Part shown: piece by piece, positions 7,698-57,700 of the stretch | Numbering within the stretch: position 1 is the stretch's first letter | Layout: each line of letters starts with the position of its first letter | Assembly: GCA_958009085.1 (NCBI GenBank) | Contig: OY253676.1 | Span: forward strand, 124,001 to 188,000 | Length of the DNA stretch: 64,000 nt | Source: Protoeuglena noctilucae | Lineage: Eukaryota | Direction of reading: 5' to 3' | Program-made: the position numbers and the translations under genes | Notes under the pieces: model-generated | What the model was told of the DNA's origin: nothing | Database searches by the model: none | What the model saw: only the letters and a program-made list of their open reading frames with translations

Positions 7698-8179
7698 GGC
7701 CCCCGTCCACCCCCTCGCCGCCAATCAGGCGCGTTACTGCCGGCGAGCGTCACGCAGGAGCGGCCAGATCCCGCAGGCGGGCTTGGCGCTCCGTCCCCGA
7801 CACGCGGACGAGACCAGCGGCCCTCGTCGGTGCCGCCGGGCCAACTACGCGGGCGTGCAAGTGCCTCCGCAAGTAGATAGACCTTCCTCTATGTCGCGGA
7901 GCCTCTATGGCTTGAGCTTTGGACTTTCACTCAAGGTTGACCCTCCAACGACCTTCGGATACAAATCCTAGCTTGCCAGCAGCGCTACACGACGCGATGC
8001 GGCTCAGAGACGGTAGAAGGCGCTGGTGGATGACCAACTGGCACACGCGGGGACAGCCCTTGTCTGCGTCAGCGGCTCAGCGAGCCCAGGAGAGCTGTCC
8101 GGGCCTCACCTATCGTCTTCTAAAGCACATGTACTCCATCGCTTGTAAAGAACAGACGCTGCATCGGCGCAAACCCAGC

Positions 8180-17099: not shown

Positions 17100-23653
<6,554 letters not shown>

Positions 23654-27039: not shown

Positions 27040-29881
27040 ATGGTTATTCCGATTATGCGTCCCACCGATCGCCATCTGTCGCACCTGCCTTGAGCGCCCT
27101 GCCCCCTTATTTTGGGAGCGCGGGGTCCACGCGCCAGGCCGTCCGCCGGGGCCGCGAGACGCACTTTCGCCGACACCATCCGCAGATTGGAGGACCCCGG
27201 GTCCTCGATGAGGGGGCCCAGCAGGAGACGGGGGAGAATGCGCGCCTGGTGAGCGTCCGCGCTTTCCGCACGACGTGCTTGCGCCTGGTCCCACGCCGTG
27301 TCCCTGGCCCCGCCCGCCAACGATGATACTATCAGCGTCATGCACTTTCTCGCGTCGGATCCCCGCGTCGTCCAGCGAGCGCTCGTCGGACGGGGCTCGC
27401 AAGGGCGCACTGCCCGCTGGGCTCTGGCCGGCGCCGCTCCTCTTCCCGCGCTGCCCCCGACCCTTCGCGAGAGTTACGCTACACCCCCGCCTTTCCATGC
27501 AGTCGTCGTTCGTCGGGGCCATCGCCATCGCGGACCTGGTGAAGACCACGCTGGGTCCCAAGGGCATGGACAAGATCCTGCAGTCCGTCACCGGGGGCTC
27601 GGTCTCTGTGACGAACGACGGCGCGACGATCCTGAAGGTGCGCGCCCGGGAGCGGCCCGGATGCGGCGAGAATGGTCGGTCGCCGCTGCTGCCGCATGCG
27701 TTTCACGCTTGCGGCCCCCGCAGTCCGTCTACATCGACAACCCCGCCGCCAAGGTCATGGTGGACATCAGCAAGGTGCAGGACGACGAGGTGCGGACGCC
27801 TTTGCCGCGCTTTGCTTGCTCCTCTCCGTCTTCGCACCGCAGCGCGACCCGATGGCGCTTCCCCACGCCCACCCCGCCGCCCTTGCCCTTCGTCCCAGGT
27901 GGGAGACGGCACGACGTCGGTGGTGGTCCTCTCGGGGGAGCTCCTGCGTCAGGCGGAGCAGCTGGTCAACCAGCGCATCCACCCCATGACCATCATCGGG
28001 GGCTTCCGCCAGGCATGCACCGTCGCCCGGGAGCGACTGGAGGCGTGCGCGTGGGACAACAAGGCCGACGCCCCCAAGTTCCGCGAGGACCTCCTTAACG
28101 TCGCACGCACGACCCTCTCCTCCAAGATCCTCACGCAGGCGAGACGCAGGCATGGCTTTGGTCTCCGGTCGCTGTGGCGGGTGTCACAGCCTTCCTGATG
28201 CCCTCTGGTGTCCTCTGGAATGCTTGTGACCGGCCACCGAGGCCGCCTCCACCCCCGCACCCACTGTGTGACCTCTGCCTTACTCAACTTCCACTTCACG
28301 CCTCTCCACAGGACAAGGATCACTTCGCGGAGCTTGCCGTGCGTGCCATCCTGCGCCTCAAGGGCCAGCCTAACCTAGACATGATCCACATCATCAAGAA
28401 GACGGGGGGCACGCTGGCGGACTCGTTCCTGGACGAGGGGTTCATCCTGGGCAAGTCGATCGGGGTCGGGCAGCCCAAGCGCATGACGGGGGCCAAGATC
28501 CTCGTGGCCAACACCCCCATGGACACGGACAAGATCAAGATCTACGGGGCCAAGGTCAAGGCGGACTCGATGCTCAAGGCGAGAGCCAGGGCTAGCGGGG
28601 CGGCCACAGTGCCCAGCGCGGGGTCGTAGGGCGATGTGCGCTGTGCGAAGCGTGGGGAGCAGTATTGGAACGTTGGAGAGATGAGCACTGCTTGTGGCAT
28701 AAGTGATGCGTTTGTTGCTGTCAGTGACGCTGTTTGGACTGAGCTGAGGGTGGCTGAGCTGAGGTGGCTGAGGTGAGGGTGGCAGCGTGCTTCGTGGTCG
28801 CAGGTGGCGGAGGTGGAGGCGGCCGAGAAAGCCAAGATGAAGGCCAAGGTGGATGCGATCCTGGCACACGGGTGCAACGTGTTCGTGAACCGGCAGCTCA
28901 TCTACGACTGGCCCCAGCAGCTGCTGGCGGACGCGCAGTGCATGGGCATCGAGCACGCCGACTTTGACGGGGTCGAGCGGCTGGCGCTCGTGACCGGGGG
29001 CGACATCGTGTCCACGTTTGACACCCCGGGGCAGGTGCAGCTGGGGTCGGCGGAGGTCGTGGAGGAGATGATGATCGGGGAGGTGAGGAGGGAGGGCATT
29101 GCGAGCGCGGCGGACCTGGGCGGGTGGGTTGGGATGGCTCTGACCCGCGGTCGCTCGCCCTGCCTGGCTCCAGGACCGGTGCGTGCACTTCAAGGGCGTC
29201 AGCAAGGGCGAGGCGTGCACGATCGTGCTGCGGGGCGCCTCGACGCACGTGCTGGATGAGGCGGAGAGGTCCCTGCACGACGCCCTGTGCGTGCTGCAGC
29301 AGGCGGTGCAGGACGCCAGGGTGGTGCCGGGGGGCGGGTACCCGGAGATCCAAATGGCGCAGGCGATCGAGGTGAGCGGGCGAGGACGGCGTCGCGAGCG
29401 GCGGGGCAGGCGCAGGGGGTGGGCGTACCAACGTGCCCCGCCGTGCACCCACCCAGGACGCCGCGCGCAAGACGGCTGGGAAGCAGTCCCTGGCGATGGA
29501 GGCGTTCGCGTCCGCCCTGCGCAACATCCCCGCGATCATCTGCGACAACGCGGGCATGGACAGCGCCGACGTGGTGGCCGAGATGCGGGCCGAGCACGCC
29601 CGGGCGGAGACCGAGGGCCGCAAGGTCTACCACGGCGTCGACGTGGTCCGGTGAGCGACATTGGGAGCTTGCGGGCTGCGGGGCAGGCTGAGCGACCTGG
29701 GCTGTGCGCTGACGCTGCCAATGGAGTCGCACGCAGGGGCACAACGGGGAACATGATGGAGCTGGGGGTGTTCGAGTCGTTCAAGGTCAAGCAGCAGGTG
29801 CTGCTGTCGGCTACGGAGGCTGCTGAGATGATCCTGCGCGTGGACGACATCATCAAGGCCGCCCCACGCCAGCGGCAATAG
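27040..29881 (+). CDS. CCT2: T-complex protein 1 subunit beta (CCT2); first exon uncertain
   Basis: [81 protein letters not shown] and [16 protein letters not shown]. Confidence 0.97.
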
Positions 29882-30329: not shown

Positions 30330-33300
30330 ATGTCCTCTTACTCTTTTCCGTCGTTTGTTGGAGCTGTCCGGCAGGCTGCCCCGCGGACGCGCTCTGCGGG
30401 AGGCCGTGCTGGACGGCTCTCGGCCCCCACCTTCATCGCTGCCCTGCTCCCGATGCCGTCGAATGCGCCCCCTGCCCTCACTGCTGCAAGAAGCGGCAGG
30501 CCAACGGAGCGCAGATATGGTCCCCCGCCTCGCTCAAGGCCCCTGGGGCGGTCGGCAGCAGCGTGCGGCCTTGGCGTTGTCCGCAGCCCCCACCGCGGCC
30601 CCAGCTCGCTCTCCCGTCGGGCTTCGGGCATTCCCTGCATGTATGTTGCGTTAGTATGTCGCGCTTGATGGATCTCGGCCCGCAGTCCCTCTCCGCACCA
30701 CCGGGGCGCCCCGTGCATCTGAGGTGTCCCACACGGCGCCCCGCGCCCCGGCCAGGGGCTCCGGCCCCTGCGGAATCTTTTAGAGACCTCCAGACTGCAG
30801 TCCTGAGCTTGTCCAGAGACAGAGTCGCTCCATCGTCCCCCCGCAGGGTGGCGGGGCGTGGGTCGGTCTGCGTGCGGGCGCTGCACTCGACCGACCCGAA
30901 GAAGCGCGTGGTCGTGACGGGCATGGGCGTGTGCTCCGTGTTCGGCAATGATCCGGAGGTGTACTACGACAAGCTGCTCGCCGGTGTCTCGGGTGCGCGC
31001 CTCGGCATATCGCGCCGCTCGCGTCCTGCAGCTCGCGTCTCCGCGGCGTGTCGCATCCCCTTTGCTCTCCGCTGTTGCCAGGTATCTCTCTGATCGAGGG
31101 CTTCGATGCCTCCGAGTACCCAACGCGCTTCGCGGGCGAGATCAAGAACTTTGACACAGAGGACCTCATTCCGCCCAAGGAGGCCCGCCGCCTGGACACG
31201 TGCTGGAAGTACACGCTGGTCTCCGGTGAGCGTCGACTGGTCTGCGGACTCGCCGATCGTAACTGACCACGAAGAAAGAATGGTAGCGGACTGGGGCATG
31301 GGCGGCATGGGCGGCATGGCACAAGCACCTGAGCTGCTGTGCTGCGTTCTCTTGCAGGCAACAAGGCGATGATGATGGCCGGCTTCCACCCCAAGAAGGA
31401 CCAGGAGGCCTTTGAGAAGCTGGACCGCTCTCGCGTGGGTGTTCTCGTGGGCACGGGCATCGGCGGCATGTCCGTCTTCGCCAACAACGTCGAGACCCAG
31501 GCAAGGGGCAGTGATGATGACAGGCACTGTCCTGTCACTGTCTTGTCATAACAAGATGGGAAGGTATGAAGAACGATTGTTGCAGTCGTGTTGGCTTACC
31601 AAACACAACCAGCACTTGCGAGATGATGCACGAGCTCCCCAGCAATGGTTCGCCACAGCGTCGACATCCACAGCCCTTGCTTACCTCGTCTCCCCCTGCA
31701 GGTGACCAAGGGCTTTAAGCGCATCTCCCCCTTCTTCATCCCCTACGCCATCACCAACATGGGGTCGGGCCTCCTGGCCATGGAGCACGGGTTTATGGGG
31801 CCCAACTACTCGGTGTCCACGGGTGAGGGAGATTGAATAACAGGGGAGATTGTTGATTAGCAGATGTAAATTTATGGACTCATGAGCCCCAATGTTCTTG
31901 ACGACATCCCACCATTCTCGTTCACATTTGCCGCCCCTCCACCACTGCCCACCACTGCCACTGCCCCCTGCCCACCACTGCCCAGCATTACACTCCTACT
32001 TCCCGCAGCCTGCGCCACCGCCAACTACGCCTTCCACCTCGCCGCGTCCCACATCCGCGCGGGCGAGGCCGACGTGATGATCTGCGGCGGGGCGGAGGCC
32101 CCCGTGAACGCCACCGGCCTGGGCGGCTTCGTGGCCTGCCGCGCGCTGTCGTCTCGCAACGAGGATCCCACGAAGGCGTCGAGGCCCTGGGACAACGGCC
32201 GGGATGGGTTCGTGCTGGGGGAGGGCGCGGGAGTGCTGGTGTTTGAGTCGATGGAGCACGCCATGAAGGTGAGAGAGACTGGAAATGGGTTGGTGGCATT
32301 GCAAGTGTGGGGGTGCTGCTCACGGTACAGTCCCTTGCTCTCTCACGTCCCCGTAACTTTTGTAACTAGCAAGCGGCACTCTGACTTGCCACCACCATCT
32401 GCGATCACATCGACATCACATATGCTATCACACGAATTCCTACCCCTCCCTCGGCTGCCCCCCCGCCCGCAGCGTGGCGCCAACATCCTGTGTGAGTACC
32501 TGGGGGGTGCCTTCACGTGCGACGCCTACAACATCACGGACCCGCACCCGGAGGGGCTGGGCGTGGCCACGTGCATTGAGCTGGCGCTCAAGGTGAGGCG
32601 ATGAGATGGGTGGGGTGGGTGGGGGACGGTACGGGATGGTGTGGTGATGATGGATGAGTAGCACTGCTGCTATGTGGTGCACTGCAGTGCGATGCGCGAA
32701 TGGGGCATGTCACTCGTCTTCTTGCATGACTGTGCCCATCCCATAACTGCGCCCCGTCTCGATTGCATCACCGCTCACTCCAATTATGTCTCTCTCCCTT
32801 AACAGGACGCCAAGATCGACCGCGACATGGTCAACTACATCAACTGCCACGCCACCTCGACCATCGTGGGCGACAAGGCGGAGATCAAGGCCGTCAAGTG
32901 AGCCTGACAGGGAATGGGGGGGTGACATGAGACGGAACCAACCCACGTTGGTTTGTTGCCATTTATCCTCTCATGGTGGAAGCGCATCGGGTGGCATTGT
33001 GGACATGCTTGCTTACCCCACTGCTACCTCTGACAGCACCCCACTGCAACGCAACCCCACCGCACCACAACCCCACCGCTACCCCGCCGCTACCCCACCG
33101 CTACCCCGGACCCCACCCCAGCATCCCCATCCACGCTCTCCTCTCCCCCCAGGCGCGTCTTCACGGACACCAAGAACCTCCACGTCAACGCCACCAAGTC
33201 GATGATCGGCCACGGCCTGGGCGCGGCCGCTGGTCTCGAGGCCATTGCCGCCATCCAGGCCATCCGCCGGGGCAAGCTGCACCCCACGCTCAACCAGGAG

Positions 33301-33435
33301 GATTTGATCGAGGAGGTGGCGGGGATCGATACCTGCCCCGAGGCGCGCACCGTCGAGGTGACGGCCGCGATGAGCAACTCGTTCGGATTCGGTGGCCACA
33401 ACTCCTCGTGCATCTTCGCGCCCTTCAAGGCGTGA
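30330..33435 (+). CDS. KASI: Plastid 3-oxoacyl-ACP synthase I (KAS I); start uncertain
   Basis: [27 protein letters not shown] (KAS I-type rather than the KAS II MNPFCVPFATT), catalytic TAC, NCH and GHGLG, and [10 protein letters not shown]. Transit-like N-terminus. Confidence 0.92.
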
Positions 33436-34107: not shown

Positions 34108-37100
34108 TCACGCATCGCTGGCCAGCATGCTCTCGAGGTCTGCGATCACGGCTTCGATCCCCGGGCGCGCCTTGGGGTCCGTGGCGGTGCACTTTGCGAT
34201 GAGGGCCGCGAGGGGGGCGGGGCAGCCGGGAGGGGCGGCCAGGGGGGTGGCGACGTTGGGGTCCTTGAGTTTCATGACCTGCGGTGGTTTTGAGGGAAGG
34301 GGCAGTTGAGGGTCGGGACATGCAACTGCGATGGGGCGACGGCACCGACGTGCGACGTGGCAGCGCATGCCGGCATGTTATGCAGATGCGATGGTGCCAC
34401 CCCTCATGCCACCCCTCCTGCCACCCCTCACACCACCCCTTACGCCATCCCTCGCCTGCTGCAGCGTCAGTTCTGCGTGGGGCGCCTTGCCCTCCACCAG
34501 GTGCGAGGCCAGGTGAGCCAGGGCGTAGACGTCAGCGGCGGGGCTCAGGCGACTGGCAAAGAGGACCTCGGGGGGGAGGTGGGAGATGGTGCCGATCTTG
34601 TCTGCGAGTGAGGGGGGAGATGGTAGGGGAGTAAGGTGGGAGATGGCGTCAATCTTGTCCGCGAGTGGCAGTGAGAGAGACTGAGTGGCCCCGTATCACT
34701 CTTTGCATGCACGCTCCCCTTACCCCTCCCTTCACCCCTCTCCCTCAACCCCCCCCCCCCCCCCCCCCCTCTCCACCCCTCACCCGCCGTGGTGCTGGTC
34801 AAGTCCGGGCTGAGCACCCGTGACACACTGAAGTCTGCCACCTTGGCCAGGAAACCCTTGTCCACCGGCGCACCGGCCAACAGCACGTTCTTGGCCTCGA
34901 CGTCCCCGTGGACCACCTTGTTTGAATGCAGGTGCTGCAAGCCACGCGAGGTGTCCAGGAGCACCTGCGTGGGGTGACAGGAACACAATACGTTCAGAAC
35001 TGAGCATTGAGTTCGCCTTGCTCCACAGGTACTGGATGATCTCTTTAATTCCATCTATTCATTTCACCACTGCATTTGTCCCCTCACCTCCCCTGCTTGA
35101 TTACATCGCACACCCCCTCACCTCCACCACCCTGCGCACGTCCACGTGTGCCGCCGGCTCCGTCAGAGTCTTCGGGGACCTCCCGTAGTGCCAGTACCCC
35201 TCCTGAAGGGCGTCCTCCACATCGCCGAGGTCACTGGACAGAGGGGCACAGAGAGACGAGCGAAGGTGACATGAGGCGAGGACGCCGAGTGCCAGTGCAA
35301 GTACCACAGACACAGTGAGAACAACTTAGTAACTGATCCAAGAGAGAGGATTCAAGGGTTTGACATTGGCCACTCACCTCCTCCGTTGCCTCTCCCCTTC
35401 CCACTCACCAGTGCTCCATCACCACCCAGACCTCGTACATACCCGCGCCGTCGCCCACCCCCGCAGAGCCCACGCCCGACCCCGCCGGCTCCTCCCGGCT
35501 GCTCCCCGCCGCCGTGGCACCCGACCCCGCCTCCGCCACAACCGTCGACGAGGTCGACCTCTTACGCAGGGACCCAGCTGCCCCACTGCCACTGCCACTG
35601 CCACCACTGCCATCGCTGCCCATTCCCAGACCCTCCGCCGCCTTCCCATCGGGTGCTGCCCCGGTATTATTGTCCCAGTGATTGGTCGCGTCCACGACGC
35701 TCGCCGCTGTAAGTACCGGCCCCTGCCCCTTTGCAGGCCGCGCCAGGCATGTGTGCGCTCGTACCAGATTAGGGTGGTGCAGCCAGGCCTCGACCATGGG
35801 ACCGTCGCGGGAGGCGGGGTCCGGGGGCAACGCGGCACGCGCCACGATGGCACGGGCCTGGGGGCCGGTGACGAGCTCACCAAAGATCTTCACGGCCACT
35901 GCGGGTGAGGATGGGGCAGGGAGGGTCAGAAATGGACATCTGCATGCAGGCCATCGCGATAATAGTACTAGCGGTGCCTGCACCTGGTCGGGGGGGCGCA
36001 GCAGGTGCAACCCGCAGTAACTGCTGAGGCCGGCAGTGGTTGTTTGGAGGGCTTAACACAGGCAGCTACAGGTCCCTGACGTACCCTGACCCGTCTGGGG
36101 TTCAACCCGGACCGCACCGCACCTTCCTGTCCCTTCCAGGTGCCCCGGTACACCGCCCCGTGCGTGCCGCTGCTGATGTACGCCTCGAGTACGACGTCGG
36201 CGACGGCGGGGAGGGCGCCGCGTCTCTGGAGCCACCGCAGGGCGCGGCGGAAGGTCTCGCCGGCCGCGATGGCGCAGAGGGCGAAGGCAAGGAGGCCGAG
36301 GGGGCCCTGCGTAGTATCGGGTATGTTGCGGGTTAGGCACCGTGGGTTAGGGTGGCGTGGTGCGAGGGCAGCCGACACTGGCAGTGCAAATGCGATTTCT
36401 CATACCATGACCGGTGCAAGAGCGATCAAAGAGTGTTGGGCTCCCCTGATGCCGCAGCCAGTCAGGCAGCGCACCTACACAGTCGCACGCTCACAAGCTC
36501 ATATACCCATGTTGCTCCTGCGCTCACCGCAGCCAGGACGCTCGCGATGAATCGCAGGAGCACCTCCCGCCCCGGTCGCTCCTCGGCCTCATCAGTGACA
36601 CCCTCGCCAGGAGCCCAGGGCACCTCGAGCGTACCCTGCCACTGCAGCGCCATGTCCCGCACCTGCCTCCTGCGCGCGCATCGAGACCGGCGAGATGTCG
36701 GAATGTCGCAACGGGGACTGGCAGAGTTGCCAGGCGTCAATTTGCAAGACGTCGATGTGTCCGGACTGCGCCCTCTTACCCTAGCGCATGGCAGGAGAGC
36801 AGTCACCGCTTACGGGCAAACGTTGGCCAGAACATCCTCACATCATCTGCATTTGACACTACCGAGCTCTCACCGGTAGGCCATGTCGAGCACCGGCGGC
36901 CCCAGTTCTCTCGCGGGGCTCCCTGGGCCGACAGATGGGACGCAGCCGAAGGTGACGTTGACGTACCGAATGGCCACGAACGAGGACCTCTGGACGCCCC
37001 AGTCGAGCACCGTGTAGGACTTCACGCCGGTGCCTAGGTTGTCCAGGCCCTCTGCGGTGGCAACGGGGTGGGGGCAAGGGTGGAGGGTGCGAGTGGGGCA

Positions 37101-38665
37101 GCGGGACGTGCGAGGGGTGTGTGACATGCGGAAAGAGGGTGACATGGTGAGCATATGGCGCAAGAGGTGGAAAGGTTGGTGACACGGAGCCTATGAAAAG
37201 AGGGTTGGGTCGGTTTCACAAGCGTGGGGGTAGAAGGCGTCTGTGTGGGTTTACAATCGCCCTCGCACCTACGCCGCCCTTGTTGACTCCCTTGAAGAGG
37301 ACGGCGAAGTTCAGGAGACCCTGGTGATCCTCGATTCGCTTACACACCTCGCTGGGAGCCGGAAGGGAGGCCACGGTGGGTCATCGAGACGATAGGTGCG
37401 GGCGAGTGTAAGCGCACGCGTCGGCCGGGCTGTGCTGTGCCGCACGGTGCCACGTTGCAACTCAAGAAGCGTGTCGTGAAGTACATGAACATGACCATGG
37501 TCACCTGAATCGCACGTTGACGTAGAGGACCTTGCCATTGACGTAAGGCTTGTTAGTGCCGGCCATAAAGGGGTAGTAGGGAGCCATGTTGTTGACGAAG
37601 TGGGCGTTGTAAACCAACAAACTCGTGTCCTTGCTGATGCTCCAGAGGTCGAAGCGGTGCCCGCCGTCTCTGCGGAGCGCAGGGAGGCGAAAGTGTTGTC
37701 GAACGTGCTCGGCGGAGATAGCCGTGCTGACGCCGCGCCGCGCGGATCGGAGCCGCATGCGGACTCACATAATCGTGTTCGTGCACGCCGTGCCGACCGC
37801 GATGTGCCTCCCGACCGGCGCCACGAGCGCTTCTTTGCGGGAGACCTCGGGTGCCCGAAAGTCGACATCTTTCGCGAAGACGACGTCCGATATCGCCTTG
37901 TTCGGCGCAGCGGCAGGCAACGCGAGCACGCCTCCGTAATGGAGCTCCCTGCGGACGCGCGCGCGCGGTGCGGGAGCCGTTCCAGCGCTAAAGCTCTGCA
38001 TCATGCTCAACACAGCTTCCACGGGGCAGCGCATGCGGACCTTTGGCTCCCATCCGCCTGCGGCATGTCCGCGACCAGCACCTGCGGGGAAGGGGACAGG
38101 CCAGGCGTGAAGCTCGCGTTGAACCCTTGCGTGTGGCAAGGTCTCTTGAAAGCTGTGCGGATCCGGGCGCCCCTTCGATGCGCCGACTGCGCCGACAGGA
38201 TGAGTCAACGAAATCCTCTCGCCTGGTCCTCGTGCTTGTCGAAAGTCACGGTGCGCGTGGTCAAGGCGACGACCTCGGGGGGAACGTCGATGGGATCCCG
38301 GCAGTCGGGAAACGCGTTCCTGAAAATCCGATCTGCTGGCCCCGATTCCCACGCATCTGGGTATCCTGCGGAGCGCTCGCGGGAGACGCGACTTTGCATG
38401 GGCCCCAGGCATGCACACGTTGTTGGGCTTCACGTGCATGCGATGAGGGACACAAGTGCTCTCGCGCAAACCTTAACGAGACAGGACCCAGCTGAGGTGC
38501 GCAGTGGCCCCATCCCCCGAGCCGCTTGTCCTGACCTGCGCTCTCCACGGCGTGCATGTGGGCGACTGCGCCTGGGGGCGATATTGATGCACGCGCAGCA
38601 TGACCAAAGAAGATCAGGAGGAGAGAGGCTAGGACCAAATGCGCAGGAGGGCAGGGAAGCGGCAT
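34108..38665 (-). CDS. Receptor-like protein kinase: signal peptide, unrecognised ectodomain, TM segment and TKL-type kinase domain with degenerate motifs
   Basis: Signal peptide MPLPCPPAHLVLASLLLIFFGHAARA and TM segment FIASVLAA|GPLGLLAFALCAIAA. Kinase motifs: ISSGTHGAVYRG, VAVK, LHHPNLV, WVVMEH, HGDVEAKNVLL, VADFS, GTISHLPPE, ADVYA and DPKARP. Confidence 0.82.
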
Positions 38666-39126
38666 CCTCCAGGTTGCAGTGGCATGCGTGGCTTCCGATC
38701 GCGCCCGTACGACCTTCGCCAGCGTTGTGGCAGAAATCTGAAACGAGTTGAGATCGGGTCGCACTTCTACGGTGGCACGGCCCGCCGCTGGAGCTGCCTC
38801 CTGACGCTTCGAACATGTCAGGTTGGCTAATGCTGCCTTCCTTTCCATCTGCCTCGCTGGTCGTCATTCAAAAACATGAAACAATGCACACAAAGTCTGG
38901 TCACGAGTCGCAAGAGCTTAAGGCAAAGTGATGGGAGGGGGGGGGAAGGGGCAACACTGATGGACCGTGACTGGTGGACCGCGAGATGGAAAGTTTGCTG
39001 CGAGCTTACTGTCCTCTCGCAGCACTGACCATCACGCGGGAGCCAAACACGGGCCATCGTGTGTCCGCATCACGTCCGCAGCTGTGTGATCCGGTCGATA
39101 CAAGCGCGCTGCTCGTCGTCAATTGT

Positions 39127-41292
39127 CTACACCTGGTCCCCGGGGATCTGCCCGTCGATGACGTACTCGACCTCCGCGGTGACCTGCTTCTGCTTCGCGG
39201 AGTGCTCGTCGATGACCTTGCCGCTGGGGACCTGGGGCGCACGCCTGGCCCTCTTGCACGCGCGGACGGCCAGCACGATGCCGATGGCCACCAGGATGCC
39301 CCCGACGCCCTGCAAGGTGCGAGAGCGAGCGAGGGCGGAGTGAGAGATGAAAGACAAAGCGGTGGCACGCATCGACAACCCACCGCACCGTCGTGAGAGC
39401 GGGAGCAGACCTTGCCGCCTGGGCAAAGGAGCCGTGCGAGAGCAGAGAGAGCTACCCAGCCGCTCACCCCGACGAGGACGGCGATGACGGGCACCTCCCA
39501 TCGCTTGATGCTGGCGGAGCTCTCCCGCGTCCACTGCACGTCCACGTCCAGGTTGCCCTGCCACTGCATGGCTGCAGCCTGCACGGCCGCCCTGCAGCCA
39601 GGCGCGAGGTCCGGAAACCATGGGCGACAATGCCGGGTGCGTCGCTACCCCTGCACCATGCCTGGCTGCGATGTGTCCTTATCACAGGTCGTCCCGCCAG
39701 CGATACGATGGCTGAGAGTCGTGAACCAAACAGGACCGGCTCACCTGTACGCCTTGTCGAGCACGGGGGGCCCGAGCGCGCGGTCGGCGCTCCCCGCGTC
39801 GAGGGACGCCACGCATCCGAACGTGACATTAACCATGCGCATGGTGACGAAGCCCGTGTTGAGCGCCACGGTGTCCCGCACGAGGTAGGACTTGACATCC
39901 AGGCCGTTGTCGAGCCCCGCTGCGGAACAAGGGAAGGTGAAGGCGGAGTTAGCCGGCTGGTGGGAGGGGCGGTGCGCTGCAGGGTACTTGCGCGGGTGGC
40001 ATGGGCACGCACCCACATCGCTCCTCGTCATGTTCTTGAAGTACGCCCCCAGGTCCCGCAGGCCCGTGTGGTTCACCACGGAATCGCACACCTCACTGCG
40101 ACACTCGAGAGACCATCGTTTCATCCTTTGACAATGAGACTCGATAACCCACCCCCTCGTCCCGTCGCAGCATCATCCGGAAATGGCACTGTGCACGGCA
40201 GAGAAAAGGGCGGAGATCTCACACCTGAAGCGCACGTTGACGTAGAGGACCTTGCCGTTGACGTAGGGCTTGTTGGTGCCGGCCATGAAGGGCGGGTACG
40301 TGATGACGTTGTTGATGAAGTGCGAGTTGTAGATGAACATGCTGAGGTCGCTGCTGGCGTTCCACAGGTCGAGGCGGTGCGCTCCGTCGCTGCAGCAGGA
40401 AGAGGTGGGACCTGGCTTGGTTGCACAAGGGAGGCCACGCCATGGGCGTCGCGTGTGTGCAAGCACGCAAGCCGCGATCATGCATCAAGCGACGTCTCAC
40501 ATGACTGTGTTGGTGCACGCGGTCCCGATGGCCATCTGCCGGCCCGTGGGCGTCACCAGGGCGTACGGCTGCGACTCCCCGCCGGTGCCAAAGTCGACGT
40601 CTTCAGCGAAAACGATGTCCGACACCGCAGCGTCCGGCGCCGCTGCGCCCAACGCCATCGCACCTCCATAGTAGAGCTCCCTGAGCGACCCGGAGATTCC
40701 CGAAGCGTCCGCGATCGCCACCTGTCGGAAAAGGGCGTGACCGTTGAAAAGGGCGGGGGGCGTGGGGCGTTTGAATCAGGGGCGCCCATCGCCGCGCCTG
40801 AGGTCCGTTTAGCGCTAAAATGCATCTTGCCTTGTCCGTGTAGCTGCCGGACGAAACGGTGCGCAGGGAGTAGGTCAGGGCAGTGCCGTTCAGAACCGTC
40901 GGGACCGGCGCAGCATTGTCGCACGTCTTGAACACCTTCCCGAAGACTTGGGAGGACGACAAGGCTGTGGAAGAAGAACCGAGCTCTGCGCACGAGGAGG
41001 AGGGCGCAAGGTCGTCCCGGAGGCTCACTTTTTGCATGTCACATGACTGGTCGGGTTCGCGCCCACCTCGGCGTCGAGCAGCCGCCGCAGCGTCACAGAT
41101 TAGACGATCGCACGCATAAGTAGCCAAACTGGGCCATTCCGGCGACTGGGGGGCGCGGGGTGAGCAGGACGGCCGCCCTTGTCCTGCTCAAGCGTGCGGT
41201 GCGCATCCCGCCTCACCTGTTCCGCCCACCGAGGTCACCATTAATAAGATGGCTAATGCGCCACCCAGCCAGGCGCGGCGAGCGGGCGGCAT
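39127..41292 (-). CDS. Type I membrane protein; kinase-less tandem paralog of the adjacent receptor kinase ectodomain
   Basis: Signal peptide MPPARRAWLGGALAILLMVTSVGG. Shares PFMAGTNKPYVNGKVLYVNVRF, GTACTNT, VNVTFGCV, LGPPVLD.AYR and QWQG with the neighbour. TM segment VIAVLV|GVGGILVAIGIVLAV, then a short tail. Confidence 0.8.
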
Positions 41293-43984: not shown

Positions 43985-45238
43985 ATGACCGGAGCACTAT
44001 CTTGCCCTGCTAAACCGCCCATACGGCGACTTGCAACATCGTTATGCAATCGCGCCGTTCCACACGCGCATCGGGGGACGCATGGGCGAGTGAGGCAGGG
44101 CCATGATGTCGGATGCTGCAGCGCAAAGGAGGGGTCCTTTGGCGGCGCGGACTCTTTGGATTGGGAGACGATGGGAAGGTGACATCCGGCTGGTCGTGGC
44201 ATCGGCGCGGAGGACGTATGGCAGGTGCACCGCTGCACTCTCGCCAACCCGAAACGGTCTTCCGCACAGGCTTGCCAGGAGGACGGTTCTGCTAGCTTCG
44301 GCGCTGTCGTTCGCACGGCCATGCGCAGCGTCAGGAACCGCCACTGAGAGAATCGCGGGCCAGTACGACAAGTACAGGCGAGGCAAAGACGGCGTGATGG
44401 CTGACACCTTGAGAGCTAGCCCAAGAGAGAATGCGTTCACAAGACCCGCCTGTGCAGCGCGATGTATGATGCTCTGGACGGCGGCGCGGCGGCGGAGGCC
44501 CTGGGATTCCCAGAGCTGCGGTCGGCGCTGCTGTCGCGGGCTCGGGGACGCACGCTGGAGACGGCGGTGGGCACTGGGCTCAACTTGCCGCTGTACCCGG
44601 GAAACGAGGGGAGCGTGTCGTCGCTGACGGCGGTGGACGTGTCGCGGGGCATGCTGGAGCGAGCGAGGGCGCGTGCAGCGGGGGTGGGGACCGCGGTGGC
44701 GCAGCAGGCGACGTTTGTGGAAGGAGACGTGGCCCGTCTGCCCTTCGAAAGCGACAGCTTTGATACGGGTGAGAGAATGGCTTTGGTCTTGCTTGTTTTC
44801 TTCCTTTCCATGCACACCCGGGGTCATCCTTCGCTCTTGCGCGCCGCTCCTTACTATGAGACGGCACCCAGCACGCTCCAGGCACCCTCGTGCCCTGCCC
44901 CATCCCATGACCCACTCTCGCCGCTCTCGGCCCCCGCAGTCCTGGACACCTTCTCCCTGTGCGTATTCCCGGACCCCTCAGCCGCCCTCCGTGAGATGGG
45001 CCGCGTTCTGCAGCCCTTCGGGTCCCTCCTCCTCCTCGAGCATTCCCGCAGCGACAACCCGCTTCTGGCGTCGTACCAGGACCTGACTTCAGGGGCGGTG
45101 GCGGCCACGGCCAAGGGGTGCGTGTGGAACCAAGACGTGGAGGGGATGGTGCGGGCGGCGGGGATGGAGGTGGTAAACGCCCGGCGGGCCGCGGCAGGGA
45201 CCGTCGTCCTGCTCGAGGCGCGCAAGAGGCCCGCGTAG
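43985..45238 (+). CDS. Class I SAM-dependent methyltransferase (Methyltransf_11/UbiE-like), probably plastid-targeted
   Basis: YD.YS.MYDALD, TLETAVGTGLNL, AVDVSRGML, GDVARLPFESDSFDT|VLDTFSLCVF and LLLEHSRS. Confidence 0.88.
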
Positions 45239-49326: not shown

Positions 49327-52300
49327 ATGGCCGATCGTGGGCGAAAGGCCATGCCTTCGGCCAACCACATCTTGACGCAGCGGGAGGTCGAGCACAACAT
49401 GGCGCTGCATCACGAGAGGCTCGCGAAGATTGGACCGACACCTAAGCGTTGCGAGACAAGTGCGTGCGCCCGCCGACGCCCCCGGCTATGCCATGAAAGG
49501 CGTGGGGTGCCCGCGAGTCGCTGTCGCTCGCCTCCTGCGCTGATGTCGCTGCGCGCACGAGCGTCCCTCCGTCCCCGCAATCTCGTTGACACAAAGAGTG
49601 CGCACGTCACGTGCCATGACGCCCTGTCCCGTCTGTGGCACGCAGTGACGCACGACATGCCGCTGACCATGACCCTCACGCATGTCAAGACGCGCGCCAA
49701 GCAGCGGCAGCAAGAGGCCGAGTGGCGCGCGACAGTGCACGCGGACAACCTGCGGCTGCTCAAGAAGATGGAAAGGATCGGGACGCGCAAGATCACGGAC
49801 CTCACTAAGCCCGCGAGCTACCGTACCTCCATGCAATCGGTCGCGGCAGCGAAGGGGTGAGTCCGGCACGCTTCGTTCTGACTGCGATCGTGTGCGTGTC
49901 GCGGCTCTTGCGCCTCGGAAGCCAGGGGCGTTCACAGGTAGCCCTGAGCTGCGTACATGAGCGCGTAAACACACCCAACATCTTCCCTCCCTCAGCGTCG
50001 CCATGGACGCCACGACGTACCCTTACATCGACTGCCGCTTGGACAAACCCAACACTCCCGTGCTCGAGGGCCGGCAGAAGGAGCGGCTGCTGGAGGCGCA
50101 CCGCGTGTGGCGGGAGAACCAGGCCATCCTTGAGCGCATCACGAACGCACGCGCGACGAGGGAGCTCACGGTGGTGCGGGCCGGCGCTTGCGGGCGCCAG
50201 GGGTTGTACCATGTTTACCATGTGTACCATGCGTACCATGTATACCATGCGCAGGGTCGCAGAGGCATCAGAGCGTGTCGGGTCTGATCTCGAGCGTCGC
50301 CTCTCTCTTGCCCTGCAGCACCACCTGCGCAACGCGCAAGAGAGCCAGGAGAAGTACGCCAAGATCGCGCGCAACCCGTACGTCTCGACGCTGGAGCGCA
50401 ACCTGTTTGCGACGGCCCGGCCAGGGAGCTCCCGGCCGCAGAGCCCGCCGACCGGGGCGCGCCTTTCCTCCACGGCGCCCACGGCAGCGCTGCAGAGCCT
50501 GCGCCCGAGCACCGCACGGCCTGCCCGGACGCCGCTCGCCGCGCGGCCCGCTTGGGATAGCTCGACAGGTGCGTGGGAGATGCGTTGGGAGATGGCCTGG
50601 GGGATGCGGGTGCCCGTGAGCGAGGGCGGCATGCATGTCTGCAGTCTGCAGGGTTCCGCAGCCGCTGCAACTCACGCAGGGGTGGATCACAACATATAAT
50701 AGGAAATCCTCCTCGTCTGCAGATCCCCTCGCGCGGCCAGTCACGGCCAACGCCGCGGAGGAGGCTCCGTGGCGGCAGCCCATGCCTCTGTACGACCCCA
50801 GCCCATTCAACAGCGGCCGCTTCGAGGGAGGGGCGTTCACGGCACGCGCCGTGGCCAAGCAGGAACGCAGGCACAGGTCAGACTTATTCTAGAGTGCACG
50901 TGTCTAGCGACCATGCATTGGTTGGCACCCGTGCCATCGCTGTCTCCCCTGCCCGGTTGCGATGCCAGCCTCTTGGTCCCCACAGGGACGCCATCCGGGC
51001 CATGACGACGGGGCGCAACCCCATCAACTTCGCCCCCGAGGCCTACGCCGCTCCCACCCGGCCCCTGTCCCGCAACATCACGGAGGGTCCTCCCGAGCCC
51101 GCACCCACACCCTTGGGCTGGCGGCCACCCTCCGGCGCGCCCACCTCCCCGCAGCGCCGCTGGGTCCTGCCGCAAGCCCCGAGAGCGCCGCCGGCGTCGG
51201 CACCTGGGTACTCCCGCCCCTCCGCCCCCTCGGGCCCGCCCCCGGCAAGGGTGTCGGCCTGGCCGCAGACTGCGCGGCAGGTGCCCGTCGAGCGCCTCGT
51301 CACCCGGGACGCCAGCGAGGAGTTCCGGCCCCTGCAGGTGAGCAAAGACGTGACACGGCACACAGCCCTCTGCCCTCACCGCCATGCGACCTCCGCCTCC
51401 CGCACCCCTGCACATGCACTCCTGCCTCATGAACTGCGTGACGAGTGCTCGGCACAAGCGAATCCCTTGAGCCTCTCACTCCCCACGCGTGCTCCTGCGT
51501 CCTCTCTGCAGCGAAGCGGCACGGAGCAGAGTCGGTCGAGCAGCGGGACCCCGTCTGGGGGTCAACCCCCGGAAGCTGAGGACTCGGTGCACATCGTGGT
51601 GACCGCGGGAGGCAAAGAGATCGGGGACTTCACGCTCGGGTGAGTGATGAGTTGGGTCTGCGGCAGCAATAGGCGTGGTTCTCTTGTGATCGGGTGTGAG
51701 CACGATCAGGCTCACCAAGCTGTAGGGCTGACTGCGGCAAAGCGCCTATTCGCATCGTGTTTATTGTCCCTCTTGGTTGCCGATGCAGGAAGTCGTCGTC
51801 GCACTCCCATGACGCCCCCCCTGCCACACCCGCCACACCCGCCGCACCCGCCACGCGTGCCCCGGAGGTCGAGGCGACGCCCGAGGCTGCAGCGTCGACG
51901 GAGCCGCGCAGGGATGACGCGAGCATGCCCGACTCGCACCAAAGGGAGACGGTGACACCGTTTACGGAGGTGGAGCCACAGGCGCAAGTGCCCGAGAGCC
52001 GTGATGCGCCGGTCCCTGCACTTGTGAAGGAGGAGGAGGAGGAGGAGGAGTATGGTGGCGAGAGGTTCGAGGAGCACTCCGAGGGGCAGCGCGTTGCCGG
52101 GGGCGCGGAGGGAGCTGAGGCGGGTTCGGCGGCGGGTGCGGATGGGGAGGGGGCGGAGAAAGGGGCTGAGGCAGGGAGCGGTGGGGACGACTATGAGGAC
52201 GATTTCGAGGGTGCGGGGGGTCATGGGGAGGCGGAGGATGCCAAGCGTCGGCAAGAGATGGCGGCGGTGAAGATCCAATCGCTCGCCAGGGGCCGGCAGG

Positions 52301-54302
52301 GGCGCAAGCGGGCGGCCGCTCGCCGGCATGAGGTGGTCGCACGCAAGCGGGAGGTGGCGGCGGTGAAGATCCAGTCGCTGGCGCGGGGGCGGCAGGGGCG
52401 CAAGCGGGCAGCGCGTCGTCAGCAGGAGTTGCTAGATGCCAGGGCGGCAACGGCGGTGCAGGCGGCGGCTGCGGGGCACCTCGTCCGCAAGAAGACGGAG
52501 GCCCAGCGGTCTGCCAAGGCCGTGGATGCGGTAGATGATGCGGTGGGTGAGGATGGGCCCATGGGCGGTGGGGTCGAGGCGATTGGCATGAGTAGTGCGG
52601 TCATCGGCGATGCTGCGGTGAAGGAGCTGCTGAGCGAGGGAGCCGAGGCGGTTGACGTCGAGGGCTTTGGGGACCCGAGCGCGGGGGAGTTAGGGGATGT
52701 GGCGGAGGTGGGGGATGTGGTGGAGGCAGGGGATGTGGGTACATTGCCGAGCAGGGATGGGAGCGGAGTGGACGGAGGGGCGTCGGACGAGTACGCAGAG
52801 GATTTTGAGGAGCACGGGGAGACTGGGGGAGAGGGGCCTGAGGAATCGGGGGGGGCGCAGGGTGGGGAGGGCGAGGGAGGGGTGTCGAGGCAAGAGATGG
52901 CGGCGGTTAAGATCCAGTCGCTCGCAAGGGGGCGGCAGGGGCGCAAGCGGGTGGCCCGGCTGAGGGAGGAGCGGGCGAAGGCGACAGGCGCTTCGTCGGC
53001 GGTGGGGCAGGCAGGGCCTGGCGAGGTTGGGCAGGAGGCGACTGAGGCGACGGGCGGCGCAGAGGACGATGCGCCTGCCGCACCTGCCGCACAGGCCGGG
53101 GCTGACGGGGACGCCCTGCCGGCGACGGTGTCGGAGGCGCGGGCGTGGATGAAGCGCGCGCAGGGGACGCTGCTGTCCGGGGACCTTCCGATCGCCCTGC
53201 GTGACGCGAGCGCATGCGTGCGGGGGGCAGCGGCCATGGGCGGGGAGGACGACGAGGCTCTGGACGTGATGGTGGAGGCGATGAATGCGATGCGGGACTG
53301 GGTGTTGTCGGCATTCGACGAGGGCGGGGCCTCGCACGCCGCGCTGCTGTGCCACCGGGCGGGCATCACGGCCCCGGCGGAGCTGCTGGCCGAGAGCGGC
53401 GGCGCGGATGGCCTCATCGGGCGCGTCGTGGTCACCGGGGGCGTGCGGCTTCCTGCGGAGGAGGACCTGTCGCTCACTTCCACCATCGTCATTGGGGAGG
53501 AGCCGCCCGTGGCCCTCCCAGGGGGTTTGCCCCACGAACTCAACGTCGTGGAGATCCCGGTGAGCGTCAATTAGCTATACTAGCTATGCCAGTGGTCCTT
53601 GTCTTGAGTGGTCGGCAGGTCGGCAGCGCAGAGGAGTACACGCGTGCTATGCTGTGCATGGGCGGACGCAGAGTCGGGTTGCTTCGAGAGCTCCCTCACT
53701 CCGCTCGACCTCTCCTCGTCTCCTCGGAGTGGTATTCAACTGACTCAAGTGACGCTGATCAATGTGTCGGTCAAGGTGCCCCAGGGTTGTTTTGGAGAGG
53801 TGGGCCTGGAGTACTGCACGGTCCACCAGCCGCCTCCCAACCTCCCCGCGCTCTTCCTGCAAGGTGAGAGAGACTCTCACACTTGGCCCCCAAAACTGGT
53901 CGGGAGCAGCATCTACTTACCTCTCTGCAACGGTCAGCGTGCCTCATGCTTGCTTCTTACCTAGCTTCCTACTTATCTTCACCCTCGCGTCGTGCTGCAG
54001 GGTCCGGGCCAATCCTGCTGGAGAAGTCGTCCATTACGGGGGTGCAGGGCGGGAGCTGGCCCGCGGTGCTGGTGACTGCGGGGGCGGTGGAGATGGCGGA
54101 CGTGACGGTGCAGGGCTGCAGCGGCGCGGTGCGGGTGGCCGAGTCGGGGAGTGTCACAGTAAGGGGCGGCCACGTGACGGGCTGCGGGGCAAAGACAGAG
54201 GCGCTGACGGTGATCGGGGGGCGGATGGCGCTTGAGAACGTGCGCTTCACGGACGGCGGGGAGGAAGCCGTCCTGACCGAGACGATCCTGGCGCCCGCCT
54301 GA
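49327..54302 (+). CDS. Multi-domain protein: N-terminal CFAP97/KIAA1430-like region, Pro-rich linker, acidic region with IQ motifs, and a C-terminal beta-helix-like segment
   Basis: AKQRQQEAEWRATVHADNLRLLKKMERI and RVWRENQAILERI. Phase-consistent GT-AG introns link through to three AAVKIQSLARGRQGRKR repeats. The tail reads AVLVTAGAVEMADVTVQGCSGAVRV. Confidence 0.65.
50205..50249. repeat. Intronic 9-bp tandem repeat (NNTACCATG)x5
   Basis: TGTACCATG TTTACCATG TGTACCATG CGTACCATG TATACCATG. Confidence 0.9.
52253..52950 (+). repeat. Three coding copies of an IQ-motif repeat
   Basis: GCGGCGGT.AAGATCCA.TCGCT.GC..GGGG.CGGCAGGGGCGCAAGCGG at about 52261, 52357 and 52900. Confidence 0.9.
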
Positions 54303-54795: not shown

Positions 54796-57700
54796 CTACT
54801 TGGGGGGGTCCAGGATTCCCTCCATCTGCTGCCGCATCTGCGCCATGGCCGTGACGATCAGATAAGGGTTCTCCAGAAGCTTTTCGTCCCCACGCTCCTG
54901 GGCCGTCTTGACCACCTTGCGGAGGGCCTCACGGTACTGAGGGAAAGGAAAGCGGAGGACGCGTGTAAAAAAGTATTCACTGGACCGTTGACTTCTTCAC
55001 GAGGCATAATGTTGAAGAACAGCCTGCAACCGTTGGATTCGCAAGCGCAGGGTTGGCACCGGGCATCCCCATGCTGCACCCGCACCTGCTCTCCGTACGT
55101 GCGGCGGATGTACCGCTGCAGGAAGTCTGCTGCGTAGAAGCGAACCCGCGCATCTGCGGACACAAAAGCACCCACGCCGTCGTCCCACTGACACGGCACA
55201 GGCCGTCAGCCTCGGACTCTTGAAACCCCTCCCTCTGGCAGACAATCGACGCATCCATGACATCCCCGCGCATGGTTTCCATTTAAAAGCCCCGTCCGCC
55301 CTCGCGCTCGCTTACCCGGGTCCTGCAGGAAGCCCTGGGCGGCATGAACCGCAGACGCGCCACCTTCTGCGCCAGCCCCGGCCCTCATGGGCAGCCCCGA
55401 GCCCCACTTGGCGAGCAGCAAGACGACGAGCAGCAGTCGGGCGTCCTCCGCGGCCGATGCCCACGGCGACCAGGCCACGCTCCCCACGTCACGCTCCACC
55501 CGCGGGCAGGCCAGCAGCCCGCCCAGCGCCGCCTGGTGCGTCGCAAACTGCGCGGGCGACAGTGAATACGTGAGACTCAGTGCGGCGGCGACTGCGGAGG
55601 AAGCGCGGGCCGTCTGCGGGGCCTGAATTCGCTCGCAACTCGCGAATTGCACGCCTTCCCCCGCCGCGCCGCCTCCCCGCGCGCTCACCAGGGAGCACTC
55701 GCCCTGCAGAAAATCGATGATTTCCTGCACCAGACCTGCGTCCACGTCCCGGGCCACCGCGCCCCACAGCTCGGGGGACACCTCGACGAGCTCGCCCGCC
55801 ACGAGCGACCCCCAGCCGCCGGGGTACTCCGGCGCCTCGAGGAAATAGTTGACGGGAGCTGTATTGGGGTCCGCGACGTCGCTGAGCGAGTCGCGGCCCG
55901 CCGCGGAGGCCGGCGCGAGCATCCCGGCCCGGGACGACACGTGGCGTGATGGCGCAGCGTTGGCCGCGTCTGCGCCCGACTGCGGCGTGTCCGGGGCGCC
56001 GGAAGTCGACATGGCGCGCGCGGAGGCGGACGCGGAGGGCGTCGCGGGCGTCTCGGCCAGGAAGGGCAGCTCCTCGCTGTCGTCTGCGTTTTTGTCGACC
56101 AGCGCCGAGAGCAGCACCCTGGACGGGGGGCAAGGGGTGTACCGATGATGCGCATTGCGATAACACGTGACGCTTGGAATCGCGCACGTGGCATTGGGAG
56201 CGCTGTGGCCGCTGCTAACGGTGTCGGGCGAGCGACGGGCGTGGCGGAAGCCGGGTGCATCGAATAGATAGCAACGCGGAGGGTCACACCTGACGCTCCG
56301 CAGGATGGCGGGGAGCGCCCCGTTCACGTGCTTGTACTCCAGCAGCCACCGCGCGCCATGCACCAGCACCTGCATTGATCGAGAGCGCGGGGGCATGGGT
56401 CGGGTGGCAAGGCGATCACGGCACTGCCTATCAAGCTTGCACACGATGGCCCAAACCCGCACTCGCACCAGCCTGTTCAGCACTGCACGCCATGGCATGC
56501 ACCCGCTCCCCCCACAGCCTACCCCCATCCCCGCCTCACCTGCACCCCCTCCCTGCGGCTTTCCGCGGACATGACGTCGCCGGGGAGCGGCACCCGCGCC
56601 TTGCCGTGGCCTACGGGTAACCACGCCCGGACATACACCTCCAGACCTGCAAAGGGAGAAAGCGAGGACGGCAGGGGTGGGCGGACCGCAGAGGGGGTTG
56701 CAAAGCGTGCTGATTACCACGCATGATGTGACTCGGATACGCTGACCAGCGCACGGGCAACGACGGCAGTCAAGGCAAAAAGACAATACATCATTTGGAC
56801 TACCCACCATGTTCTGACGGTGCCCCCGTTCCCCTCCACTTCGCCAAACCAACTGCACCCATCCACTTGCCTTCGACGAGCGTCTGCAGCGCCATGGGCC
56901 CGATGACGCCGCACCGCTGCAGGAGCGGCACGAGCACGCACGCCCGCAGCCGCGTGTCGCAGTCGTCGCGCACGCGGGGAACGTCCAGCCCCGCCGGCCC
57001 GCCGCCCTCGTGCGCGATCGGCACGGGGAGCACCCCGTTGCGCAGCGTGCGCTCCAGCCGCCCGATCTCGTCCCCGCCCAGCGTGCCCCCGAAGCCCGAC
57101 AGGATGGGGACCAGCTTGCGGTCCGCTGCCGCCTCGAACAGCGCCCGCACCCAGACGAGGATTGTGGGGAATGCCCTGCTCAGGTCCTCGGAGCACCGCA
57201 GGAAGAGATCGTCCAGTGCGTCCCATGCTTCGACGGTGGCGCCGTGAGCGCCGCGGGGCTCCTTGAGGGATGAGACTGGGGGGTTTGAGAGGGGGGTGGT
57301 GGTGAGGGGGGAGGGGGGGGGGGGGGGGGGGGTGAGTGAGCAAGGGCGGAGAGCAGCTGTAATTTCTAACCCTATCCTCCACACGGGAAGATTTCGTTAC
57401 ACAGAACATAGATAGAACATAGAACAATGACATCCTGTTACCCCCCACTCTGCTCACCCGTGACTTGCAGGTGGTGTGCGGTGGATTCCGGCTCTGTGGG
57501 CGGCAGCTGCACCAACGCACGCGCGGCCACCTGCATCTCTTGCAAGACCGTCTGCGGGTAGGAGTGGGGCATACGATGACTCGAAATGCAAGATGACGAC
57601 CACATTTGACGAGCGGAGTGCTCGCATCGCTCTGCTTGTTGGTTGCTTCTAAACAATACTTACACCCGCCAACAGCATCATCCTCTTGATCCCCCCTATC

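Follow-up and report, generated by a model that had tools for sequence, protein, structure and literature searches.

In the genome of Protoeuglena noctilucae (assembly GCA_958009085.1), two adjacent genes raise the question of whether a receptor-like kinase (RLK) and a kinase-less neighbour built on the same extracellular domain work together at the cell surface. The genes lie within a 64,000-nucleotide stretch of contig OY253676.1 (positions 124,001 to 188,000 of the forward strand; hereafter the window), and an initial annotation, made from the sequence alone, had read them as tandem genes with an unrecognised ectodomain, of which only the downstream one carries a kinase. Our analysis confirmed this gene pair, with its common ectodomain and with a kinase in the downstream gene only.

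Exon models that are consistent in phase, in start and stop codons, and in splice sites resolved the span 34108-41292 into two genes on the minus strand, to which all coordinates of the pair given below refer. The upstream gene, here called A, encodes the kinase-less paralogue of 393 amino acids (aa) in eight exons (coding region 39127..41292; exons 41292-41217, 40985-40831, 40721-40501, 40389-40225, 40095-40013, 39919-39745, 39591-39468, and 39309-39127), with its ATG at 41292 and its TAG stop codon at 39129-39127. The downstream gene, B, encodes the receptor kinase of 778 aa in 14 exons (coding region 34108..38665; exons 1-7 at 38665-38536, 38356-38223, 38081-38041, 37948-37769, 37669-37505, 37351-37269, and 37051-36874, and exons 8-14 at 36669-36528, 36306-36123, 35898-35409, 35233-35122, 34964-34784, 34601-34456, and 34278-34108), with its ATG at 38665 and its stop codon at 34110-34108. 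The outer ends of these models coincide exactly with the coordinates first proposed for the two same-strand neighbours, 41292 being the start of the A coding sequence and 34108 the last base of the B stop codon, and the stop codon of A is separated from the ATG of B by 461 bp. No third copy was detected within the 64 kb by tblastn searches with each protein.

Each protein begins with a signal-peptide-like segment and has a single transmembrane (TM) region, as had been claimed; both calls rest on hydropathy and the exon models. In A, the N-terminus MPPARRAWLGGALAILLMVTSVGGT (41218..41292; hydropathy window above 1.6 at aa 7-28) is followed by an ectodomain of aa 26-324 (39495..40985, introns included), a TM segment of aa 325-348 (39265..39494, split by intron 7; hydropathy up to 2.76), and a predicted cytoplasmic tail of 45 aa plus the stop codon (39127..39264), which begins with the basic motif RACKRARR and matches no significant Pfam family. 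In B, the corresponding elements are the N-terminus MPLPCPPAHLVLASLLLIFFGHAARA (38588..38665, by hydropathy), an ectodomain of aa 27-339 (36564..38587, introns included), and a TM segment of aa 340-367 (36259..36563, split by intron 8; hydropathy up to 2.27), beyond which a protein kinase domain was recognised by Pfam matches on exons 12-14 (approximately aa 390-778; 34111..36190). The strongest of these was on exon 12, which scored 37.3 bits with PF07714 (cut-off 23.1) and 33.5 bits with PF00069 (cut-off 31.7); the matches of exons 13 and 14 were weaker and collinear in the profile. None of the A exons matched a Pfam kinase family, and the kinase is thus confined to the downstream gene. By these exon models and hydropathy profiles, B has the architecture of an RLK (signal-like peptide, ectodomain, single TM segment, and kinase) and A that of a receptor-like protein (RLP), namely the ectodomain type of B, one TM segment, and a 45-aa tail with no kinase match.

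The two proteins are identical at 165 of 337 aligned positions (49%), and tblastn of each against the locus of the other gave E values of 8e-43 and 2e-49. The ectodomain is homologous in both; its length had been put at roughly 250 aa and proved to be about 295-310 aa, with a conserved core of ~245 aa. The similarity includes an invariant block of 22 aa, PFMAGTNKPYVNGKVLYVNVRF, located in exon 4 of A (from aa 184; 40227..40292) and in exon 5 of B (from aa 195; 37507..37572), as the initial annotation had noticed; the two copies differ by five synonymous and no nonsynonymous changes. The motifs GTACTNT, SEVC, and TFGCV were likewise found with their cysteines in both spliced proteins, and four cysteines are conserved (47, 146, 209, and 269 in A; 62, 157, 220, and 281 in B). 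Most intron positions are common to the two genes, again as expected: five of the seven introns of A align exactly with introns of B, and the other two, which fall in the loosely aligned signal-peptide and TM regions, have the same phase as in B. One additional ectodomain intron in B splits the exon homologous to exon 3 of A. In a separate observation, a database protein of another assembly (P0002), which is an open reading frame (ORF) fragment of gene B, is identical to window positions 37507-37764, the intron-encoded part included, except for one residue inside the 22-aa block (N to D, ...PYV(N/D)GKV...), which may be a polymorphism or a sequencing error.

Estimates by the Nei-Gojobori method over 257 ectodomain codons gave 0.99 synonymous (dS) and 0.38 nonsynonymous (dN) substitutions per site (dN/dS 0.39), with dN/dS ratios of 0.24-0.38 in exons 3-6 (A numbering), and the homologous introns of A and B can no longer be aligned. 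The dS of ~1 and the dN/dS of ~0.39 therefore mark the duplication as old and the ectodomain core as subject to purifying selection. A recent copy or conversion tract was considered and rejected: the dS of ~1, the synonymous-only changes in the 22-aa block, and the diverged introns indicate that the similarity was kept by selection rather than by recent gene conversion.

Transcription of both genes was assessed with marine metatranscriptome contigs from four runs of one study (X1-X4), which were placed on the window at an identity of at least 99%; the runs contain 23-46% of the sampled sequence words of the window. All seven introns of A were present as spliced joints in contigs of X1, X2, and X4, and one 1509-nt contig (X2, record 7) covers five successive A junctions in pieces from exon 2 to exon 8 and continues to 38861. 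For B, 10 of the 13 introns were supported by contigs of the same three runs: introns 2, 3, 5, 9, 10, 11, and 13 by listed joints, intron 12 by adjoining pieces within one contig, and introns 4 and 6 by loose contig ends whose letters match the adjacent exon. No joint for B introns 1, 7, or 8 is among the RNA rows listed. Run X3, which consists mostly of unspliced pieces, and the uncovered interval 38267-38517 in B were not counted as evidence. Since spliced RNA contigs derive from both genes, A and B are both transcribed, with splicing that agrees with the models, and A is neither a silent nor a dead copy; an unexpressed short copy, which would have spoken against the proposed pair, is contradicted by its seven spliced introns. 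The runs were found by means of the window itself, so the co-occurrence of A and B in them is uninformative on co-regulation, and contig depth does not rank the expression of A against that of B.

The contigs also fixed details of the gene models, including the start of A exon 2 at 40985. All 20 introns of the two genes end in AG, and the donors are GT in 17 and GC in three. The GC-AG introns, each seen as an RNA joint, are A intron 2 (40722-40830), B intron 2 (38082-38222), and the last intron of B, intron 13 (34279-34455), whose donor at 34455 was set by the RNA contigs. The GC donor is kept between the homologous second introns of A and B, though the rest of the intron sequence has diverged. 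The introns of A and B are not copies of one another and therefore are not introner elements, a possibility that was tried and rejected.

We then asked whether the ectodomain belongs to a described family. The queries were single exons or a profile of two sequences, from which distant relatives could escape and with which long domains such as malectin are less detectable. Within that scope, none of the 12 translated ectodomain exons of the two genes gave a credible match to a Pfam family at E values up to 1, and in particular there was no match to the leucine-rich repeat, LysM, lectin, or malectin families, in line with what had been stated from the sequence; the four Pfam families listed on these exons (E 0.11-0.16) all scored far under their curated cut-offs. 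NCBIfam, searched at E values up to 10, returned nothing on the ectodomain exons, PDB sequences gave no match below E = 0.9 with profiles of exons 3, 4, and 6, and the ESM Atlas yielded no usable match to the ectodomain. A homologue search with exon 4 of A recovered only the ORF of the window itself (P0001). The A+B profile of exon 4, run with HMMER against 1.84 billion representative proteins, obtained three matches; P0002 and P0003 among them are ORF fragments of A and B themselves, and they make up two clusters only. The third match, P0004, was rejected as false, since it represents the translation of a tandem repeat and comprises 11 weak stretches. None of 1488 candidates scored in a search with the exon 5+6 alignment, and no related locus was confirmed among metagenome contigs (0 of 247 and 0 of 599), viral contigs (0 of 140), or stretches of genome contigs (0 of 31). 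The description of the ectodomain as unrecognised thus held up, only A and B sequences having been recovered in the collections searched. As judged by these sequence comparisons, close relatives are excluded in those collections, and the ectodomain family appears to consist of two members, without relatives outside this organism.

The nearest parallels in layout come from plants. Several plant RLK/RLP paralogue sets have one common ectodomain, among them the DUF26 CRKs and PDLPs, the LysM-RLKs and LysM-RLPs, and SRK and SLG of Brassica. The PDLPs consist of an ectodomain, a TM segment, and a short tail, SRK and SLG are physically linked, and kinase-less paralogues of plant receptor kinases act as co-receptors or decoys. 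A and B resemble these sets in presenting one ectodomain type with a TM segment and kinase (B) and without the kinase (A); gene A has exactly the layout of a PDLP, and the two genes are physically linked, as are SRK and SLG. They differ from the plant sets in that, by exon-wise Pfam searches, their ectodomain matches none of those families, and in that their family apparently numbers two, with no relatives beyond this organism in the collections searched. The predicted layout is therefore one familiar from plants, and the ectodomain is, on the same comparisons, an orphan without a family match.

On this basis, B would be a type-I single-pass receptor kinase and A an old paralogue that has kept the ectodomain and membrane anchor, with a 45-aa tail. 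The common ectodomain may serve as a lineage-peculiar ligand-binding module with the invariant 22-aa block and the four conserved cysteines as its core. B would relay ligand binding through an atypical non-RD kinase, and A, at the cell surface, would bind that ligand or one related to it, either pairing with B as a co-receptor or competing with B as a decoy that titrates the ligand. We assign a probability of about one half to the proposal that A and B bind the same ligand class via the conserved core and that A partners B or titrates its ligand. The initial annotation had offered a similar interpretation by analogy with plant RLK/RLP pairs. Its structural parts stand, namely an RLK-like protein beside a kinase-less, TM-anchored paralogue (exon models, hydropathy, and Pfam), an ectodomain with no family match (Pfam), and the expression of both copies (spliced RNA); the receptor/co-receptor or decoy relation of A and B is plausible by the same analogy.

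Several observations weigh against this proposal. Exon 2, which encodes the N-terminal portion of the ectodomain, is nearly neutral, with a dN/dS of 0.91. The ectodomain of A carries five N-x-S/T glycosylation sequons and that of B one, so the surfaces of the two proteins may differ. The junction between exons 1 and 2 of B, in the signal-peptide region, is not among the RNA joints listed. Lastly, the B kinase has a degenerate Gly loop, a Lys-to-Glu change in the catalytic loop, DFS in place of DFG, and no clear αC Glu, and it may therefore be weak or inactive.

One alternative is that A and B no longer cooperate and that A has become an independent surface protein, whether for adhesion, as a wall or matrix component, or as a receptor signalling through other partners, in which case the tandem layout would be merely a trace of the duplication. 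The age of the duplication, with its dS of ~1 and unalignable introns, agrees with such a separation, as do the unequal sequon numbers and the TM and juxtamembrane segments, which are not conserved between A and B. However, the strong conservation of the ectodomain core, with synonymous-only changes in the 22-aa block, fits a common ligand or interface, and the genes are still adjacent, with only ~200 bp between the apparent RNA end of A and the ATG of B. An independent role for A is, in our judgement, possible but not the likelier course.

A second alternative concerns the fold only and is compatible with the receptor/co-receptor or decoy explanation: the ectodomain could be a very divergent right-handed β-helix of the pectin-lyase-like or Pmp-like type, which would make the pair ordinary among green-algal RLKs. 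Rung-like motifs can be picked out by eye (YGGA(M/L)...VFA.DVDF, (S/A)HF(I/V)NN, LYVNVRFSEVC, and VNVTFGCV), and a survey of chlorophyte RLKs based on in silico annotation (PMC12757656) reports numerous lyase-related, pectin-active motifs in their ectodomains. In contrast, no ectodomain exon matched a β-helix, Pmp, or pectate-lyase family in Pfam (E up to 1) or NCBIfam (E up to 10), the exon profiles had no PDB sequence match below E = 0.9, and hhalign of the A+B ectodomain against itself detected no internal repeat (best off-diagonal match 9 columns, E = 0.25). Neither the profiles nor rung repeats thus place the ectodomain among the pectin-lyase-like or Pmp-type β-helices, although such tests on single exons or two sequences are weak. 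An AlphaFold2 model was obtained for a 116-aa read-through piece (A exon 5, intron 5, and exon 6) and was discarded for its mean predicted local distance difference test (pLDDT) score of 35.2. A β-helix ectodomain is a guess, and we hold it to be doubtful.

The third alternative, that B is a pseudokinase or scaffold instead of an active kinase, turns on the details of its catalytic core. Membership in the eukaryotic protein kinase superfamily is indicated by the profile score, by the β3 Lys, by Asp and Asn in the catalytic loop, and by Asp at the DFG position. In the spliced protein, the degenerate Gly loop SSGTHGAV (36174-36151) precedes VAVK (36123 and 35898-35888); a low-complexity insert of ~105 aa (aa 459-565) follows HPNLV within the kinase domain; and the catalytic loop HGDVEAKN (34887..34910) lacks the Arg before Asp, has Glu at the site of the Ser/Thr-kinase Lys, and has a Lys two residues further on. 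DFS replaces DFG at 34827..34835, as placed in the spliced protein by alignment to NIK, and the motifs PPE, DVYALA, and a C-terminal RP are also present.

The relationships of this kinase are mixed. The best PDB matches of exon 12 were NIK, ASK1, TNIK, Pto, and CERK1, with NIK/MAP3K14 at the top (E = 1.8e-4); those of exon 14 were FAK, JAK, Src, and ZAK; and those of exon 13 were bacterial serine/threonine kinases and MST3 (STE20-type). In the single-exon searches, PF07714 scored higher than PF00069 with exons 12 and 14, an order that exon 13 did not show, and the plant kinases CERK1, FLS2, and Pto appeared only among many equally weak single-exon matches of B. The segment HGDVKADNVLL of NIK aligns with HGDVEAKNVLL of B, both without the Arg of HRD, whereas NIK is a soluble cytoplasmic kinase and the Lys and the acidic residue are swapped in B. 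Because the other kinase exons of B best match other kinase groups, no orthology with NIK is implied. With single-exon matches spread over so many groups, the TKL assignment proposed in the initial annotation is tentative at most. The B kinase is accordingly predicted to be of a mixed Tyr/Ser-Thr profile type, non-RD, with an atypical core.

A pseudokinase would account for the sequence of the Gly loop, the Glu at the Lys site of HGDVEAKN, and DFS, as well as for the absence of a convincing αC Glu before HPNLV, where the 105-aa insert then begins, and for exons 9-11, which have no Pfam kinase match when taken alone. The residues most immediately required for phosphotransfer are nevertheless kept: Lys in VAVK, Asp and Asn in the catalytic loop, and Asp in DFS. 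In addition, NIK, the best PDB match, is itself an active HGD kinase, and tyrosine kinases rely on a basic residue four positions after the Asp (HRDLAARN). Activity of the B kinase is therefore plausible, if not assured, and a catalytically dead B seems to us unlikely.

A homologue search with a B kinase exon recovered only P0005, which is the same locus in another assembly. The poly-G/GGA-rich tract in B intron 12 (34735-34784) differs in length in that assembly, and similar G-rich stretches occur in the window at ~13340, 20730-20765, 21950-22010, and 57300-57340. At the end of the same intron (34602-34660), roughly the first 30 nt of the next exon recur in degenerate form (gacaagattgacgccatctcccacct... 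before ...acaagatcggcaccatctcccacct), as if a short tandem duplication had spanned the acceptor site.

A variant transcript of B was represented by a joint 35898/35984 in one X1 contig, which places an alternative 5' splice site of intron 9 at 35984 (35984..36122). The reading frame is shifted whether the added segment is a partly retained intron or a small cassette exon, and translation stops at 431-465 aa, upstream of the VAVK lysine; this form could be a kinase-less B isoform, or merely a non-productive splice. A more far-reaching proposal would combine this variant, as a second kinase-less form, with an ectodomain of a new, lineage-restricted ligand-binding fold that has no kinship with any known receptor module and with A and B as a two-gene sensing unit of a marine picoeukaryote that pairs via the 22-aa surface, plant-style RLK/RLP logic having been invented independently. 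We regard this combination as rather improbable.

One further matter is whether A and B are separate transcription units, a question on which contigs are limited in that they cannot define RNA ends. Contigs that run past the A stop codon end at 38861 (X2, record 7) and 38859 (X4, record 18), which gives a weak hint of a 3' untranslated region of A at 38859..39126 and leaves about 195-200 bp from the apparent A RNA end to the B ATG. That A and B form a single transcription unit with a read-through or bicistronic RNA is very improbable, for although the 461-bp gap (~195 bp from the apparent A RNA end) is short, the depth in bin 38518-38768 is non-zero in runs X1 and X2, and polycistronic mRNAs occur in green algae, the frame of A closes at a stop codon with 266 nt or more of untranslated RNA behind it, the contig ends in two runs fall no more than 3 nt apart, B starts from an ATG of its own with a signal-like peptide, and none of the contig pieces listed bridges the gap. 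The suggestion that the two loci might be one gene is likewise not supported by any bridging contig among those listed, an argument that is weak to the extent that contigs leave RNA ends undefined. We take A and B to be two genes with an unusually short spacer.

The window as a whole is intron-rich, with a GC content of 0.58-0.69 in 2-kb steps. This GC content, the marine source, and the splice-site pattern are compatible with a green alga, although they are no proof of one. Pfam searches of long ORFs in window positions 1-33500 and 42000-64000 assigned a PAP2 protein (1262-2365), an AP-complex medium subunit (6039-6812), an RNA methyltransferase (7916-9407), a P-type ATPase (20573-22512), a TCP-1/cpn60 chaperonin (27212-28195), and a β-ketoacyl synthase C-terminus (33034-33432) on one side of the pair, and a class-I methyltransferase (44420-45235) and an IQ-motif protein (51700-53571) on the other. 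By these assignments, the neighbours are predicted to be ordinary eukaryotic housekeeping genes. Rfam identified no family within the 64-kb window.

To our knowledge, marine microalgae have few receptor kinases, and these have hardly been studied. PMC12757656 catalogues 736 putative RLKs in 34 species of Chlorophyta, describes their ectodomains, annotated by AlphaFold3, Foldseek, and pLM-BLAST, as very diverse, and reports few RLKs in marine species, with an average of 6. Gene B fits the RLK definition given there (signal peptide, one TM helix, ectodomain, and Ser/Thr/Tyr kinase), whereas kinase-less paralogues such as A would go uncounted, as that definition needs a kinase; RLPs, according to its introduction, are defined for vascular plants only. 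The locus described here adds a clean expressed pair in which one ectodomain occurs with and without a kinase and, across very large protein collections, lacks any detectable relative. Should the ectodomain prove to be a divergent β-helix, the pair would just join the catalogued algal receptor-like kinases. If instead the fold is new, or if A and B cooperate, the pair would offer a tractable model of how a receptor/co-receptor or decoy relation originates by tandem duplication outside land plants.

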